Shown: positions 658 through 59,117 of the stretch, piece by piece
Layout of the letters: the number at the start of each line of letters is the position of its first letter
Numbering within the stretch: position 1 is the stretch's first letter
Origin: a virus
Lineage: Duplodnaviria > Heunggongvirae > Uroviricota > Caudoviricetes
Direction: 5' to 3' (one strand)
Virus record (IMG/VR): IMGVR_UViG_3300013126_000013
DNA: 64,000 nt
Program-made: the position numbers and the translations under genes
Notes under the pieces: generated by a model
Told to the model about the DNA's origin: nothing
The model's database searches: none
The model's input: only the letters and a program-made list of their open reading frames with translations

Positions 658-1039
658 ATGTAAATGCCTCATGTGTAAATGTGTGTTGTGTGTAAGCGGG
701 CCCGTTCTGTTTCTAGGTGGTGCCCATACCCACAGGATTATGCGGCTAGCGCGTAAGCCTTAGGAGCAAAGTTTTCGTTTGCAGTTATAATTTTCTTGCG
801 TTAACCGAGCTTGCGCCGGGTAGCTCCATCCTGCCTAGTCCGCCTGTCGATCCTATTTCGAGCCCATCAAAGATACACTCGGATAATCCTAATGTGCTGG
901 CAGGATTTTACAGGATAGCCAGCACCCTCTATTGGTATAGCCAAGTGAAACTTGGAACCCAACCGAGTGTATCTATGGTGGACCCGCTGGGTACCGCCCC
1001 CAGGTCCAGAACGTGTTCAGTGAACATCATCACTACAAG

Positions 1040-1075
1040 TCTATTTATATCATATTATTCGCGAATGTCAACTAA
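1040..1075 (-). promoter_or_regulatory. phage promoter (TTGACAT -35 + A/T-rich -10), minus strand
   Basis: revcomp GTTGACATTCGCG..TATGATATAAATAG; member of the 36-copy family. Confidence 0.55.
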
Positions 1076-47357: not shown

Positions 47358-47993
47358 CTATCTCTTACGACTTTTATACCATCCTTCTGGTATAATGTCA
47401 ACATCTTTTTTGATCTTCTTGTTCTCTTTACCGTCCGTTATCCACATCGTGCCGAACTGAGAATTTGAAGAACCAACATTCTTTGACTTACGCAACTTTT
47501 GTATCGTATCTTCTGAATGCTTCTTTCCTGTAAAGCCTCTACTGTTTTTGCCACCTAGAGAAGAATGAATTTTTCTTTTAGTTACAAAGTCATCATCTGT
47601 TTCCATAAGTCTTTTTATAACTCGTGCAGCTGCAGCAGATGCCTTTTTAGAAAAATTTGGATCTAACCTTCTTTGTTCATCTAAAGATACAGACTTTCCA
47701 CTCATGTTCAGATAACCAAATCCACCATTACCTCCTGGGCAAAGGTTGTAAGTGTCTTCTCTTAAGCAGAACTCTTCTGTTACCAACAGAGCTTCTTTAG
47801 CATTCATATCAGCTTCATTATCAAACTGGAAGAGAATTTCTTTCGTAAAGTTCTCGATTCCATGTTTGTTTTGAGCAGATTTTAGATGTTTACCAGAACC
47901 CATGTAACCATCATTCAAGTCTTTGGTCTGATGTTTTCCAATATAGATCTCGCCATTGATTAGGTTAGTGATCTTGTAGATTGTGTAGAACAT
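47358..47993 (-). mobile_element. GIY-YIG homing endonuclease gene (segB-like position in tRNA cluster)
   Basis: MFYTIYKITNLINGEIYIGKH GIY-YIG. Confidence 0.7.
47365..47404 (-). promoter_or_regulatory. phage promoter inside 3' end of HEG, driving tRNAs
   Basis: revcomp GTTGACATTATACCAGAAGGATGGTATAAA. Confidence 0.5.
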
Positions 47994-50374: not shown

Positions 50375-50538
50375 TTAAGTTTATTCCTCAAGTCATTCAG
50401 ACTTGTTTCTCTTTGCTGTGCTTCTACGTTAACCTTTGGTTCTTCGACATCATTATGAATGACTGCATTACCTTCAATTCGGCTTCGCAACTCAGCAATT
50501 CGTTTACGTAAAGAAGCAATTTCAGTTTGAAAATCCAT
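50365..50538 (-). CDS. small coiled-coil protein (57 aa)
   Basis: sub-threshold ORF, GGAGATG RBS; stop lies in tRNA-Val 5' end. Confidence 0.3.
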   Translation of the reverse strand: MDFQTEIASLRKRIAELRSRIEGNAVIHNDVEEPKVNVEAQQRETSLNDLRNKLKRN

Positions 50539-50552
50539 TGCATCTCCAATTT

Positions 50553-50626
50553 TGGCGACCTATGAGGGACTCGAACCCTCTTCACCCGGTGGACAGCCGA
50601 GCGTAATACCCATATACGAATAGGCC
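50553..50626 (-). tRNA. tRNA-Asp(GUC)
   Basis: GGCCTAT/ATAGGTC, loop CTGTCCA, GAGGGTTCGAGTCCCTC, CCA encoded. Confidence 0.55.
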
Positions 50627-50629
50627 AAT

Positions 50630-50669
50630 TCTTGTTTAATCTATACTATCTACTTGGTAGTGTCAACTA
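50630..50669 (-). promoter_or_regulatory. phage promoter (TTGACAT family)
   Basis: CTATACTATCTACTTGGTAGTGTCAACTAC. Confidence 0.5.
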
Positions 50670-50910
50670 CTTTTTTCAAGTAGTCGTAAGTTTCTTCATA
50701 AGTCTTAAAGACCTTCGTTCCATGCTTGCTCATGACTCTCACTGACGATCCAAAGCATTGAACACGTCCAAAACCTGGGTACCTACCGTTGCCAAGGAAT
50801 CGAGAGTTCCATCGGGTACGGCGACGTACAGGATCATGAAACAGATGAGGTATGCTAAGAATAGTGCTGCAATTTGCATAGAACTCTTCTTTCTCTTGAA
50901 TTGTTTTCAT
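50650..50910 (-). CDS. hypothetical protein (86 aa; start after tRNA)
   Basis: ORF; listed 110-aa ORF overlaps tRNA-Gly. Confidence 0.4.
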   Translation of the reverse strand: MKTIQEKEEFYANCSTILSIPHLFHDPVRRRTRWNSRFLGNGRYPGFGRVQCFGSSVRVMSKHGTKVFKTYEETYDYLKKVVDTTK

Positions 50911-50921
50911 ATTATACTTTC

Positions 50922-50996
50922 TGGAGCGGAGAATGGGGATCGAACCCACGACCATCTCGTTGGCAACGAGAAGCTCTACCACTGAGCTACCTCCGC
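50922..50996 (-). tRNA. tRNA-Gly(GCC)
   Basis: GCGGAGG TA GCTCAGTGGTAGAGC, loop TTGCCAA, GTGGGTTCGATCCCCAT, CCA encoded. Confidence 0.65.
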
Positions 50997-51002
50997 GTTA
51001 TT

Positions 51003-51041
51003 TGGTGGACCCTAGCGGGATCGAACCGCTAACTCCTAATT
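51003..51041 (-). pseudogene. tRNA 3' half (positions ~37-76 of a split tRNA-Ala-like gene)
   Basis: AATTAGGAGTTAGCGGTTCGATCCCGCTAGGGTCCACCA; acceptor 3' strand pairs with 5' half at 51668..51698 incl. G3:U70. Confidence 0.55.
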
Positions 51042-51617
51042 TATGGTGGAGGATAAGGGAGTCGAACCCTTGACTCTGCCTTGCAAGGGCAGCGTGTTCC
51101 CACTAGCACCAATCCCCCATTTGTCTTTTACTAATTCCTCAATCAAAGGAACTACTTCATTTGACCATTTACTATGAACCATTTCGTGATGATTTGGACA
51201 TAAGGGTATCAAATTTTTTGGTTCATTATTGTAATGATTTTCATCAATGTGATGAACCGCAACTACTTTATCAAATCCACAAATTGCACATTCACATTTC
51301 CAATTTTGAAATGCTATAGTTCTGTAGTGTGTAGCATTATCCTTCCACCATTCTTGCCTATTGTTTGCGCAAGACCTAGAGCAATAATACTTATCTTTCT
51401 GAGGATGAAGTTTTTCTCGTTCTGTTACTAAAAACTTATTAGAACAACATAAACATTCAACTTCAAATTCCTTTAATTCACCAAACTGACTAATAGTTCC
51501 TTGCGCTTTATTCCAATTATCCCTTTTAGGATTATGTTCACACCAACGACTATGATTAGCCTTTTCCGAAGTAGTTGAGAAATTAAACTCTATTTTGCAA
51601 TGTTTGCATTTCCACAT
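51036..51617 (-). mobile_element. HNH homing endonuclease gene with N-terminal Zn-finger
   Basis: CECAICGFDKVVAVHHIDENHYNNEPKNLIPLCPNHHEMVH; ORF 3' end reads through tRNA-Ala. Confidence 0.65.
51044..51118 (-). tRNA. tRNA-Ala(UGC) (intact; G3:U70)
   Basis: GGGGGAT..loop CTTGCAA..AAGGGTTCGACTCCCTT..ATCCTCC A CCA. Confidence 0.65.
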
Positions 51618-51667
51618 TCGAATTACCTCCTATTATGGAGTATTTATAATTCGCATATTTTCAGCAA

Positions 51668-51698
51668 ATCAGGCGCTCTCCCAACTGAGCTAAGAGCC
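51668..51698 (-). pseudogene. tRNA 5' half (acceptor + canonical D-arm + 5' anticodon stem) of split tRNA-Ala-like gene
   Basis: GGGCTCT TA GCTCAGTTGGGAGAGC G CCTGA TTTGC..; near-identical to E. coli tRNA-Ala(UGC) 5' half. Confidence 0.55.
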
Positions 51699-51702
51699 CG
51701 AA

Positions 51703-51725
51703 ACTATCTAGAGGGGACCTATTCC
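51703..51725. other. perfect 7-bp hairpin CTAGAGG-9nt-CCTCTAG beside split tRNA half
   Basis: inverted repeat in sequence. Confidence 0.3.
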
Positions 51726-51812
51726 TCTAGCAGGTAGATGATGCGTGATCGCCTCAACGAGTCAGGTCGAGAACTCTCAGCAGTGATCAGTGGGATCATC
51801 TACAATATTGGC

Positions 51813-51900
51813 AGAGAGCGGGTGGTATCGAACCCCAACCGGGTACTAGCCGGTCCACTAGTTTTCAAGACTAGGCTGCAGACCTCTGCAGATCACTCTC
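51813..51900 (-). tRNA. tRNA-Ser(UGA), type II (weak T-stem)
   Basis: GAGAGTG, D-stem CTGC/GCAG, perfect stem CTAGT/ACTAG loop CTTGAAA, long variable arm; CCA not encoded. Confidence 0.45.
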
Positions 51901-51908
51901 CATGGAAT

Positions 51909-51983
51909 TGGCACCAGTGGAAGGAATCGAACCCTCTACGCGCGGTTTTGGAGACCGCCGCTCTACCACTGAGCTACACCGAT
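51909..51983 (-). tRNA. tRNA-Trp(CCA), second copy
   Basis: ATCGGTG TA GCTCAGTGGTAGAGC, stem GCGGT/ACCGC loop CTCCAAA, GAGGGTTCGATTCCTTC, CCA encoded. Confidence 0.55.
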
Positions 51984-52051
51984 ATAAAATTTCAGCCGGT
52001 GAATTCTTTTGTACGTGCGGCCGGATCCGTCACAATTTCTGACTAAAGACA

Positions 52052-52124
52052 AAACTGTAATAGGGATCGAACCCATATCTCCCCGCCGTTCCGCAAGGCG
52101 TGCTATCCATTGCACCATACAGTC
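52052..52124 (-). tRNA. tRNA-like gene, anticodon arm non-canonical (8-nt loop or 6-bp stem); anticodon unresolved
   Basis: acceptor GACTGTA/TACAGTT, D-arm GTGCAATGGATAGCAC, T-arm ATGGGTTCGATCCCTAT. Confidence 0.35.
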
Positions 52125-52338
52125 TACTAGTTCGCTTTCTCGGCAAAGACTGCTACTGTAGTTCTCTAGTCAAGGCAATTGCCGCTGCCTATATAAATTC
52201 CTGGGCATCTCGCAATTGGGACTCTTACCCCTGCATCCAAGCTATGACTCAGACCGTGTTTCCCGATACGCCGAGTAGCCCTGTGGCGTATGTAGTGTTC
52301 TCATTGTAGTAGATGTCGACCTCTTCTACAACGTTTTA
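52125..52338 (-). ncRNA. ~210-nt non-coding spacer within tRNA cluster (candidate stable RNA)
   Basis: no ORF/tRNA; GGCAATTGCC palindrome. Confidence 0.25.
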
Positions 52339-54245: not shown

Positions 54246-54329
54246 TGGTGAACGGGGTGAGATTCGAACTCACGAAGCTAGTGCGACTGATTAAAAGTCA
54301 GTTCCCTTTGTCCACTTGGGTACCCGTCC
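54246..54329 (-). tRNA. tRNA-Lys(UUU) (12-nt variable region)
   Basis: GGACGGG/CCCGTTC A CCA, perfect stem ACTGA/TCAGT loop CTTTTAA, GTGAGTTCGAATCTCAC. Confidence 0.55.
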
Positions 54330-55017
54330 GTATATCTTCCATTACAGAATCAATATAAGCTTTTCTATCTTGTTTGTCAACTAATTTTTTGTAGTCAGAC
54401 CATTTTATCCGTATTATTTTCCACCCAAGATTTTCAAGATATTGATTTCTTCTTTTGTCACTCTCTATAATGCGGTCATCTAAGTAATGTTGATCACCAT
54501 CTATTTCAATGTCAATCTTTTTTTCAACTAAAGCAAAGTCAAGTTGATAGGTGTGTATTTGATATTGCTCAACATAGTTTAAACTTACTTTATCAAAAAT
54601 TTTCTTCCAGTATCTTTCTGGATATGATAGGCCTTTGCTATAATGATTTAGTTTATATGGTACCATATCTGGGTTTTCAGAAAGAAATTTTCTCCTAGAA
54701 TTGGAAATTTTGTTTTTAGTTTCTTGGGTATGCTTTCGTCCGACATTAGCGTTACGCAATTTAATTATTGTTTGTTCAGATCTAATAGGTTTTGGTAAGC
54801 CTAATTTATTAGCTTTTGTATATTGGTTTTCACCCTTATATCCAGGTTTCCTACCAGATTTCGATTTAGGCTTAGGAAAGGGATTGCTTACACAACGATT
54901 TTCATGTGCTTTATTTGCACCAGGATTAGTAGTTTCTCTGCCACAAAATTGGCAAATAAATAGTTTCATGCTGGAAATCTCCGTTTGTGTTTCTAGAGTA
55001 GGTAGATGTTGGCGCAT
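54298..55017 (-). mobile_element. homing-endonuclease-like gene: N-terminal Zn-finger + C-terminal Vsr/DUF559-like (PD-(D/E)xK) nuclease domain
   Basis: CQFCGRETTNPGANKAHENRC; ..DFALVEKKIDIEIDGDQHYL..; 3' end overlaps tRNA-Lys(UUU). Confidence 0.5.
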
Positions 55018-57490: not shown

Positions 57491-57546
57491 TCTAGAGTTA
57501 GTGGACGTTGGCCCGGCGCGACTAACACTATTTATATGATCAAGAA

Positions 57547-58454: not shown

Positions 58455-59117
58455 CTATATCGTAAAATTTTCACATTTTTTTAACGTGTCTATTATCTCG
58501 ATATTTTTATATTGTTTAAGTAATATTTTTAATTTTTTATCTTGTACTTTGGCCGCATGTGGATTTTTAGGATCAATATATCTATTATACTTTGGAAGGT
58601 AAAAATCTGGAAAGTAATTATGAATTATTCCATTTTCATCAATCCATGGTAAGGGATCGGGCCTAATCCACTCTATATTTAACTCATCTAATCTTTTAGC
58701 TAAAGCTAATTCCCAAGACGAATCTAATAAAATTCCTTTGTACTCAACAACACCTTTTCTCAATCTTCTATGGGTAGATGCTAAAGCTTTCTCTTTTATT
58801 AGGAGTTTACTTTTTTCAGTATGCCTTTTACCAGTCGATGCGACTCTTTGTTTTTCTCTTGTTGCTTCAGATACAATAGCACCATAAGTGAATTGATTAT
58901 TAAAATTCCTTTTTGCTGATCTAGCTTTAATTAGATCTTTGTTATAAGAATCTTTTTTTGGGTTTTCTGAACACCATCTACTATGATTCGCCATCCATCC
59001 CTTAGATTTATCGGATATATCGAATTCTTTCTGACAGTGTTTACATATTCCCTTATTCACTAAAATACTCCTATATGGAAGCCCCTGGAGGAATCGAACC
59101 TCGTACCGTCCATCCAC
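58455..59117 (-). mobile_element. Zn-finger + PD-(D/E)xK homing-endonuclease-like gene (paralog of 7345..8040)
   Basis: CKHCQKEF..ANHSRWC Zn-finger shared with 51036 HNH; NYFPDFYLPKYN PD motif. Confidence 0.5.

Follow-up and report, generated by a model that had tools for sequence, protein, structure and literature searches.

A homing endonuclease gene and a complete tRNA-Ala, very probably a mobile unit, nested in the anticodon loop of a phage tRNA-Ala gene

Homing endonuclease genes (HEGs) invade conserved genes harmlessly by means of self-splicing introns, inteins or intergenic sites. The locus described here is a transfer RNA (tRNA) gene for alanine that is interrupted by an HNH-type HEG and a second, complete tRNA-Ala(UGC). 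It lies on the minus strand of a stretch of 64,000 nt (hereafter, the window) from the Caudoviricetes virus record IMGVR_UViG_3300013126_000013. T4 SegB, a GIY-YIG enzyme, and T5 F-TflI/II/IV are free-standing homing endonucleases encoded in phage tRNA clusters (PMC2330249). The target of SegB lies within tRNA genes, where the enzyme recognises a generic T-arm motif, and tRNA processing has been proposed to limit HEG expression at T4 segB/tRNA-Arg (PMC2330249). HEGs also reside in group I introns of tRNA genes, an HNH enzyme at position 35/36 of tRNA-Asn in Patescibacteria and a LAGLIDADG enzyme at 36/37 of cyanobacterial tRNA-Arg(CCU) (PMC13011429). Both tRNA-cutting free-standing HEGs in phage clusters and HEG-containing tRNA introns are therefore already known.

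HEGs linked to a resistant allele of their target are also known, and intronless homing with such an allele is the case of T4 SegF with gene 56 and SegG with gene 32. In Aeh1, mobE lies in nrdA, a gene split by a free-standing HEG. Integrative elements directed at tRNA genes have in their attP a tRNA segment that serves as a replacement, and the split tRNAs and bulge-helix-bulge introns of Nanoarchaeum equitans have a complementary leader and trailer and need a splicing endonuclease. Genes split by free-standing HEGs have been termed 'fractured genes' (PMC2677866).

As read from the sequence, the two outer halves of the window locus are positions 1-36 and 37-76 of a single tRNA-Ala(UGC). The orphan 5' half (GGGCTCTTAGCTCAGTTGGGAGAGCGCCTGATTTGC) extends through the anticodon UGC, has a canonical D arm and reads, by element, GGGCTCT TA GCTC AGTTGGGA GAGC G CCTGA TT TGC. 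A preliminary description of the locus had rightly recognised it as a near-canonical half of tRNA-Ala(UGC) but placed it at 51698-51668, and it actually occupies 51699-51664 (minus strand), its start being one base higher. The orphan 3' half (51041-51003, minus strand), of the resident tRNA-Ala and with its CCA encoded, reads AA TTAGG AGTT AGCGG TTCGATC CCGCT AGGGTCC A CCA. Since ARAGORN in intron mode missed the split gene when applied to the entire window, where its only call was the tRNA-Val(aac) described below, the split was verified by explicit joining: joined in silico at 36/37 and rescanned, as had been suggested, the halves give a 75-nt tRNA-Ala(tgc). The acceptor strands of the joined sequence pair at 7/7 positions including G3:U70, and TTAGG of the 3' half pairs with CCTGA of the 5' half at 5/5 positions of the anticodon stem (one G-U), both as first described; the D stem pairs at 4/4 and the T stem at 5/5. 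The insert (51663-51042, minus strand) interrupts the anticodon loop after position 36 and before position 37. It is almost filled by the open reading frame (ORF) of the HEG and the inner tRNA, as had been claimed, and measures 622 nt instead of the ~625 bp given at first; its non-coding part amounts to 48 nt, a 46-nt leader and a 2-nt spacer, TA (51042..51043, minus strand). This spacer, which is the same in the related contig L001, separates the CCA of the inner tRNA from the outer 3' half, in agreement with the 2 nt reported before. The nested unit is flanked in the window by a tRNA-Ser-like gene upstream and a tRNA-Gly downstream.

Very probably, a resident tRNA-Ala(UGC) received in its anticodon loop a copy of a mobile unit made of the HNH HEG and a complete tRNA-Ala, with no ribozyme taking part. 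The preliminary description had seen in the locus a cassette of HEG and tRNA inside the anticodon loop, and this reading has held up against uninterrupted alleles, a mobile block shared with other genomes, the absence of an intron and the decay of the flanking pieces elsewhere.

The uninterrupted alleles were found by searching IMG/VR for an exact pattern of the outer T arm and acceptor strand, which retrieved an intact tRNA-Ala(UGC) in four contigs (L109, L110, L111 and L112). The 5' half agrees with L110 and L111 at 35/36 bases, the CCTGA anticodon stem included, and its positions 1-26 are identical in L109 and L112; the last 28 bases of the 3' half (T arm, acceptor strand and CCA) are exact in 4/4 contigs. 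The match of the outer halves is not due to chance, because four contigs carry the same gene uninterrupted, and the comparison with HEG-less relatives, which had been put forward as a check, therefore excludes that the halves are unrelated sequences. L109 and L112 are also syntenic with the window: their tRNA-Ala is followed by a spacer of 6-7 nt, by tRNA-Gly(GCC) and then by an ORF with 62-63% identity to window 50913-50677. On this comparison, the genes of L109 and L112 are shown to be HEG-less alleles of the window locus. An exact pattern across the rejoined anticodon loop had 0 matches in IMG/VR, because the first bases of the 3' half are derived from the donor, as explained below. Megablast of the region against the INPHARED phages returned generic tRNA-Ala matches only and no close relative. 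As a separate observation, about 850 nt upstream of the empty-site tRNA-Ala (L109 5419-6260; L112 10580-11420) look non-coding, are rich in GNRA-type tetraloop motifs (CGAAAG, CGCAAG) and enclose an odd tRNA-like element, so that this stretch resembles a large structured RNA beside the tRNA array.

The mobile block is seen in the closest homologue of the HNH protein, which is 95% identical and found on four independent assemblies, L001-L004 (ENA, Logan), all with the same nested junctions. The alignment of the window to L001 contains a block of 95-100% identity with sharp limits, which starts in the D loop of the 5' fragment, ends at ...CCACCATAAATTAGGAG and holds the leader, the ORF, the inner tRNA and the first ~9 nt of the 3' half; beyond it, identity collapses. 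Window and L001 have in common the junctions of TGC with TGAAAATATGCG and of CCACCATA with AATTAGGAG, and the flanks of L001 are unrelated, with tRNA-Pro upstream and tRNA-Ile downstream. The 5' piece of L001 begins only in the D loop, its anticodon-stem strand is unable to pair with TTAGG, and its 3' piece differs from that of the window in the T arm and the acceptor strand; by this evidence the outer tRNA is clearly dead in L001. In the 3' half of the window, the first ~9 nt (AATTAGGAG) are of the L001 (donor) type and the remainder is of the resident type, the uninterrupted relatives having ATTCAGGAGGTC at the same place. A 1-nt deletion marks the switch from donor to resident sequence, leaving a variable loop of 4 nt in the window and of 5 nt in the intact relatives. 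The donor-type tract together with the deletion is what co-conversion during homing would leave, and on the 5' side no co-conversion tract is detectable.

It could be argued that no cassette ever moved: two tRNA-Ala genes would have stood in tandem, the HEG alone would have entered or rearranged one of them, and the inner tRNA would be a resident paralogue. Duplicated isoacceptors do occur in phage clusters, and the window itself has two each for Trp, Pro, Asn and Met. This history is nevertheless very unlikely, since L001-L004 carry, in an unrelated cluster, an inner tRNA that is contiguous with the HEG and matches that of the window at 100%; the linkage of HEG and tRNA-Ala, with the overlap of the ORF, is retained down to ~41% protein identity; and in the syntenic L109 and L112 just one tRNA-Ala is present, which is of the outer type.

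The HEG encodes an HNH (His-Me finger) homing endonuclease of 193 aa (51036..51617, minus strand), assigned by PHROG match and invariant columns. The ORF at 51617-51036 had already been called an HNH endonuclease, and its matches to PHROG HNH endonuclease families (E 5e-15 and 3e-10) confirm it; Pfam HNH models score under their cutoffs, and a PDB sequence search gives weak HNH-core matches to IscB and to a group II maturase. A large protein database contains 329 homologues. A zinc-finger-like CxxC...HxxxC motif at the N-terminus precedes the HNH core, whose residues H122, H123, N135, H144 and H148 are invariant in an alignment of 35 sequences, as are the Cys ligands. Compared with L001, the ORF has 27 substitutions in the 498 nt ahead of the tRNA, with a synonymous substitution rate (dS) of 0.24 and a ratio of nonsynonymous to synonymous rates (dN/dS) of 0.09, values that show, for this pair of sequences, an HEG under purifying selection. 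The last ~27 codons are the translated inner tRNA, which appears as a C-terminal tail, KWGxxAxGNTxPLxG...GSxPLxST, and the stop codon (TAG, 51038-51036) falls within the outer 3' half. This tail is unlikely to matter for the enzyme, because early stops shorten it in many relatives. The leader (51618..51663, minus strand) is nearly identical in L001 and contains TATAAATA at 51648-51641 and the ribosome-binding site AGGAGG at 51631-51626. The TATAAATA motif, which we take to be the T4-type late-promoter consensus, stands upstream of all five HEG-like ORFs in the tRNA cluster of the window (5/5). A scan for sigma-70 promoters and terminators found nothing exceeding the shuffled background.

The inner tRNA-Ala(UGC) (51044..51118, minus strand), described from the start as a complete gene at 51118-51044, is predicted by ARAGORN and scores 55.7 bits with the Rfam tRNA model. 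It is the sole tRNA-Ala that ARAGORN predicts in the 33-tRNA cluster of the window. The part of the ORF that overlaps it has 0 substitutions in 84 nt relative to L001, where ~4.6 would be expected. Of the HEG-linked tRNA-Ala genes compared across loci, 18/18 retain G3:U70 and the UGC loop, and compensatory double changes occur in 13/17 stem pairs. These comparisons show conservation of the inner tRNA and the covariation expected of a genuine tRNA. Its D arm is non-canonical, GTGC TAGTGGGAA CAC. The canonical D-arm motif AGCTCAGYTGGGAGAGC is kept in the empty-site genes and in the orphan 5' fragments of the window, L016 and L125, the truncated 5' fragment of L005 is one base off it, and the strict motif is present in 0/17 HEG-linked tRNA-Ala genes. 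The diverged D arm of the linked tRNA is thus a candidate immunity determinant in the close clade.

These features bear on the view that the insert is a group I or other self-splicing intron with an HEG, in which the outer tRNA would be spliced and functional and the inner tRNA-like sequence would be part of the intron. The insertion does sit at 36/37, where bacterial tRNA group I introns are found, some of them with HNH or LAGLIDADG HEGs (PMC13011429), and both exon halves of the window are intact and pair with each other. Against an intron, neither Intron_gpI nor any other ribozyme has a match at E≤1 in 50500-52300, and no intron family reaches its gathering score in Rfam anywhere in the window. 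Only 46 + 2 nt of the 622 nt are left outside the ORF, so that the earlier statement that a group I core does not fit is upheld. Synonymous sites of the ORF diverge freely (dS 0.24), which argues against an overlapping conserved RNA core, and the inner element is a bona fide covarying tRNA. The same insert lies between non-pairing or truncated pieces in L001 and L016, and many members of the family are free-standing upstream of a tRNA (L007, Vibrio phage nt-1). A spliced outer tRNA is therefore not required by all carriers, because the flanking pieces are truncated or unable to pair in L001, L016 and L005. An intron is for these reasons highly unlikely. The locus shares with tRNA group I introns the insertion into the anticodon loop, the HEG ORF and the halves that act as 'exons' or homology arms; it differs from them in that there is no ribozyme, the exon halves are free to decay and the function is kept, if at all, by a second complete tRNA inside the insert.

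A functional split tRNA has also been considered, whose halves would be released when RNase P and 3' trimming process the inner tRNA, and would then pair non-covalently or be ligated by an RNA repair system. The halves pair perfectly over the 7 bp of the acceptor stem and the 5 bp of the anticodon stem, the 3' half starts 2 nt past a tRNA 3' end, which implies a processing site there, and T4-like phages can encode tRNA repair enzymes. This possibility is given a slim chance, given that no nuclease is known that would free the 5' half exactly after C36; that the ends of the insert, TGAAAATATGCG... and ...TCCTCCACCATA, are not complementary and offer no guide sequences; that the variable loop of the outer 3' half is 1 nt shorter than in all intact relatives; and that the halves are decayed in L001, L016 and L005. 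Neither an RNA ligase or polynucleotide kinase nor a tRNA splicing endonuclease was found among the 20 large ORFs scanned in the window, which is part of a genome. As in the split tRNAs of Nanoarchaeum, the halves are separated at the anticodon loop and their acceptor and anticodon stems pair, but here the flanks are not complementary and the halves decay in relatives. Finally, an assembly artefact or coincidental complementarity, which the probably metagenomic origin of the window and the repeat-rich nature of tRNA clusters might suggest, has a negligible probability, since four independent assemblies (ENA, Logan) have the same nested junctions, analogous nested structures occur in L016 and elsewhere, and the agreement of the halves with uninterrupted genes is 35/36 and 28/28 bases.

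The family to which the HEG belongs was surveyed in IMG/VR, GTDB genomes and metagenomes, where the context of at least some 165 distinct matches was examined, a sample that is not unbiased. Among the matches listed, close relatives almost always end inside a tRNA-Ala(UGC) (at least 22 cases), phage members at a greater distance overlap tRNA-Pro(UGG) or lie directly beside it (at least 16 cases), and relatives in Patescibacteria and Omnitrophota lie 5-10 nt upstream of tRNA-His(GUG) (at least 17 cases). In the cultured, T4-like Vibrio phage nt-1, an annotated HNH ORF extends 42 nt into tRNA-Ala(UGC); it is, like L007, an example of a free-standing member with the tRNA downstream. Nested forms vary in their state of preservation. 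L016 has an HEG with a short N-terminal form and a 26-nt 5' piece; its outer pieces have acceptor strands that pair at 7/7, G3:U70 included, but they lack the anticodon arm and contain a mismatch in the T stem. In L005, a 5' piece of only 23 nt stands directly ahead of the ATG. In L125, a tRNA-Ala(GGC) 5' half is accompanied by a leader like that of the window and by an inner tRNA-Ala(GGC), and in L103 and L162 tRNA-His 5' halves that run through the anticodon loop are followed by the HEG and then by a full tRNA-His. Truncated 3' pieces follow tRNA-Pro in L029 and L135, and in L050 and L052 the HEG is eroded to ~40 codons and the tRNA-Ala is retained. The junctions fall into two groups, one in the anticodon loop (36-38) and one where the D arm meets the anticodon stem (23-26). 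Judging by these gene contexts, the nested arrangement of HEG and tRNA is a trait of the family and not a one-off.

A broader and tentative proposal is that HEG and tRNA form an obligate pair, a distinct and widespread class of mobile element. The endonuclease would target the anticodon-arm region of a specific tRNA gene (Ala, Pro or His), the hosts would be phages and bacteria of the candidate phyla radiation (CPR) and Omnitrophota, and a recoded, uncuttable copy of the tRNA would stand in for the self-splicing intron or intein. The overlap of ORF and tRNA would let RNase P throttle the expression of the endonuclease.

Two further genomes in the survey deserve mention in their own right. In Serratia phage BF (L201, NC_041917.1, 310225-311046), a homologue of the family is annotated as 'hypothetical protein' and lies downstream of tRNA-Pro and of a second tRNA-Pro that RefSeq annotates as 'tRNA-Pseudo', which may be an annotated trace of the same process. 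L050 (IMGVR_UViG_3300027757_000397, 342 kb) has at 2289-2406 a tRNA-like gene with a hairpin-containing insertion of ~38 nt in the anticodon loop, and just upstream, at 2001-2220, a 5' tRNA fragment GCCCTTATAGCTCAGTTGGTAGAGCA fused to a small, different HNH ORF. Both add to the tRNA genes that are broken up close to an endonuclease gene, here in a jumbo phage.

A second nested split is present in the same window, at 57584-56866 on the minus strand. The 5' half of a tRNA-Cys(GCA)-like gene (57584-57547) is followed by a TATAAATA motif at 57536, a Seg-like homing-endonuclease ORF (57490-56963; phrog_314), the 3' end of which overlaps a complete tRNA-Met(CAU) carried as cargo (56977-56903), and the matching 3' part of tRNA-Cys (~56903-56866), whose acceptor strand pairs at 7/7. 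ARAGORN calls the joined halves tRNA-Cys(gca), and an extra C in the T arm indicates decay. Relatives of the 57490-56963 ORF in IMG/VR have 36-47% identity only and are not linked to tRNAs, and no empty site was found for the split Cys gene. The junction in the anticodon loop is thus common to different endonuclease families.

The mechanism proposed for the tRNA-Ala locus starts from a unit that would consist of the TATAAATA motif, the ribosome-binding site, the HEG ORF and the tRNA-Ala(UGC) overlapping the 3' end of the ORF. The endonuclease would cut HEG-less tRNA-Ala genes somewhere from the D arm to the anticodon arm, the region that contains the junctions at positions 23, 26 and 36-38, and during co-infection the break would be repaired from the genome that carries the HEG, the tRNA halves acting as homology arms and a few flanking bases being co-converted. 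The insertion would destroy the target, and the tRNA of the cassette would maintain the supply of tRNA-Ala(UGC). The linked tRNA of the close clade is probably uncuttable owing to its diverged D arm and anticodon stem. The outer halves of the window would be non-functional remnants of a recent event. Expression probably begins at the TATAAATA motif. Since the whole tRNA lies within the ORF, its maturation by RNase P would sever the HEG mRNA ahead of the stop codon and so probably limit the expression of the endonuclease.

Some observations weigh against this model. Near-canonical D arms are found in the HEG-linked tRNAs of Vibrio phage nt-1 and L103, and these exceptions weaken a recoded D arm as a universal determinant of immunity. 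The inner tRNA of L005 combines acceptor strands of the resident type with D and T arms of the cassette type, a mosaic that the simple model does not explain. The cleavage site and the basis of immunity are both inferred, and TATAAATA is best called promoter-like, being assigned by its resemblance to T4 late promoters. In the second split, the cargo tRNA-Met is not cognate to the broken tRNA-Cys, and replacement of the function of the target is therefore not a general rule. The outer halves of the window are, moreover, almost perfect, and a function for them rejoined as RNA keeps the slim chance given above.

Compared with SegB and the F-Tfl enzymes, the window HEG is likewise free-standing in a phage tRNA cluster and missing from the homologous clusters of relatives. 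Co-converted flanking sequence and a target in a tRNA gene are further points in common with SegB, the target having been shown for SegB and inferred here, and in both cases the end of the ORF meets the 5' end of the next tRNA, whose maturation may limit expression. Unlike SegB, the enzyme has an HNH fold, its ORF spans the entire downstream tRNA, its family is tied to particular tRNA identities (Ala, Pro and His), and HEG and tRNA move as a unit that is nested in a resident tRNA gene and leaves two matching halves. As with SegF and SegG, the HEG stands beside a copy of the target gene that is presumably not cut, and as with mobE the host gene is split. The protein halves of mobE-type and other fractured genes stay functional, however, through subunit assembly or split inteins, whereas the split product is here an RNA without a known route for rejoining, and the cargo supplies the function. 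Integrative elements also insert into tRNA genes with an incoming sequence that keeps an intact tRNA available, but they depend on integrases, enter at the 3' end and rebuild the gene they occupy by duplicating it exactly; this locus has no integrase and is interrupted in the anticodon loop, and its cargo is an entire separate tRNA. A targeted full-text literature search found no description of a ribozyme-free, tRNA-carrying cassette nested in a split tRNA gene, nor of a family-wide pairing of an HNH clade with specific tRNAs.

The tRNA cluster of the window contains at least 5 endonuclease-like ORFs, the remaining ones also being on the minus strand and preceded by TATAAATA. One is of the DUF559/MTES_1575 type with NUMOD3 (54298-55017); it extends 32 nt into an 84-nt tRNA-Lys(UUU), and a tRNA-like 5' fragment lies upstream of it (~55090-55050). 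Another is GIY-YIG/SegE-like with NUMOD3 (47358-47993), and a third, at 58455-59060, has the N-terminal zinc-finger motif of the Ala HEG (58% over 36 aa). Just upstream of this last ORF, the stretch 59226-59080 (minus strand) comprises a 5' tRNA fragment, GCTTCCGTAGCTCAGTTGGATAGAGCAACTGCCT, then 60 nt with TATAAATA and finally a T arm and an acceptor-like piece. ARAGORN in intron mode calls it 'tRNA-Val(aac) with 60-nt intron', and it is probably another scrambled remnant.

Unusual tRNA genes are also found nearby. ARAGORN missed the one at 51902-51812 (minus strand), which scores 50.6 bits with the Rfam tRNA-Sec model (threshold 47). Its D stem has 6 bp and its variable arm is long, but in place of UCA it has the anticodon UGA, a reader of serine codons, and L005 has a tRNA-Ser(tga) at the corresponding place. 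At 52125-52051 (minus strand) there is a gene with an 8-nt anticodon loop and, according to ARAGORN, the four-base anticodon gaac (Rfam tRNA 41.2 bits), which could be a frameshift-suppressor-like or a degenerate tRNA. At 695-1075 (minus strand), the window carries a permuted, two-piece transfer-messenger RNA (tmRNA) of the alphaproteobacterial type (Rfam tmRNA_permuted 104 bits, alpha_tmRNA 101 bits), an unusual cargo for a phage and a hint at the host lineage. The window also encodes a tRNA nucleotidyltransferase, NAMPT, ribonucleotide reductase and DNA ligase. The source is a large phage that resembles T4-like phages in its TATAAATA motifs and Seg-like endonucleases.

The solution adopted at this locus would be to break the target tRNA gene and to bring a substitute along. 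This explains why some phage endonuclease ORFs run straight into tRNA genes, and why orphan tRNA halves are scattered over phage tRNA clusters, in which annotations may mistake them for pseudo-tRNAs or for tRNAs with introns. The apparent specificity for individual tRNA genes makes the family a candidate source of new sequence-specific nucleases. A concrete mechanism is also offered for the movement of tRNAs between phages and the remodelling of their arrays. Phage tRNAs counter tRNA-cleaving bacterial defences, such as PARIS (PMC11464382), and the spread of tRNAs driven by endonucleases could for this reason affect the arms race between phages and bacteria. If the obligate pairing of HEG and tRNA is real, it would represent a third strategy, beside introns and inteins, by which HEGs colonise conserved essential genes, and such units would be a major driver of the gain, replacement and turnover of tRNAs in phage tRNA arrays.

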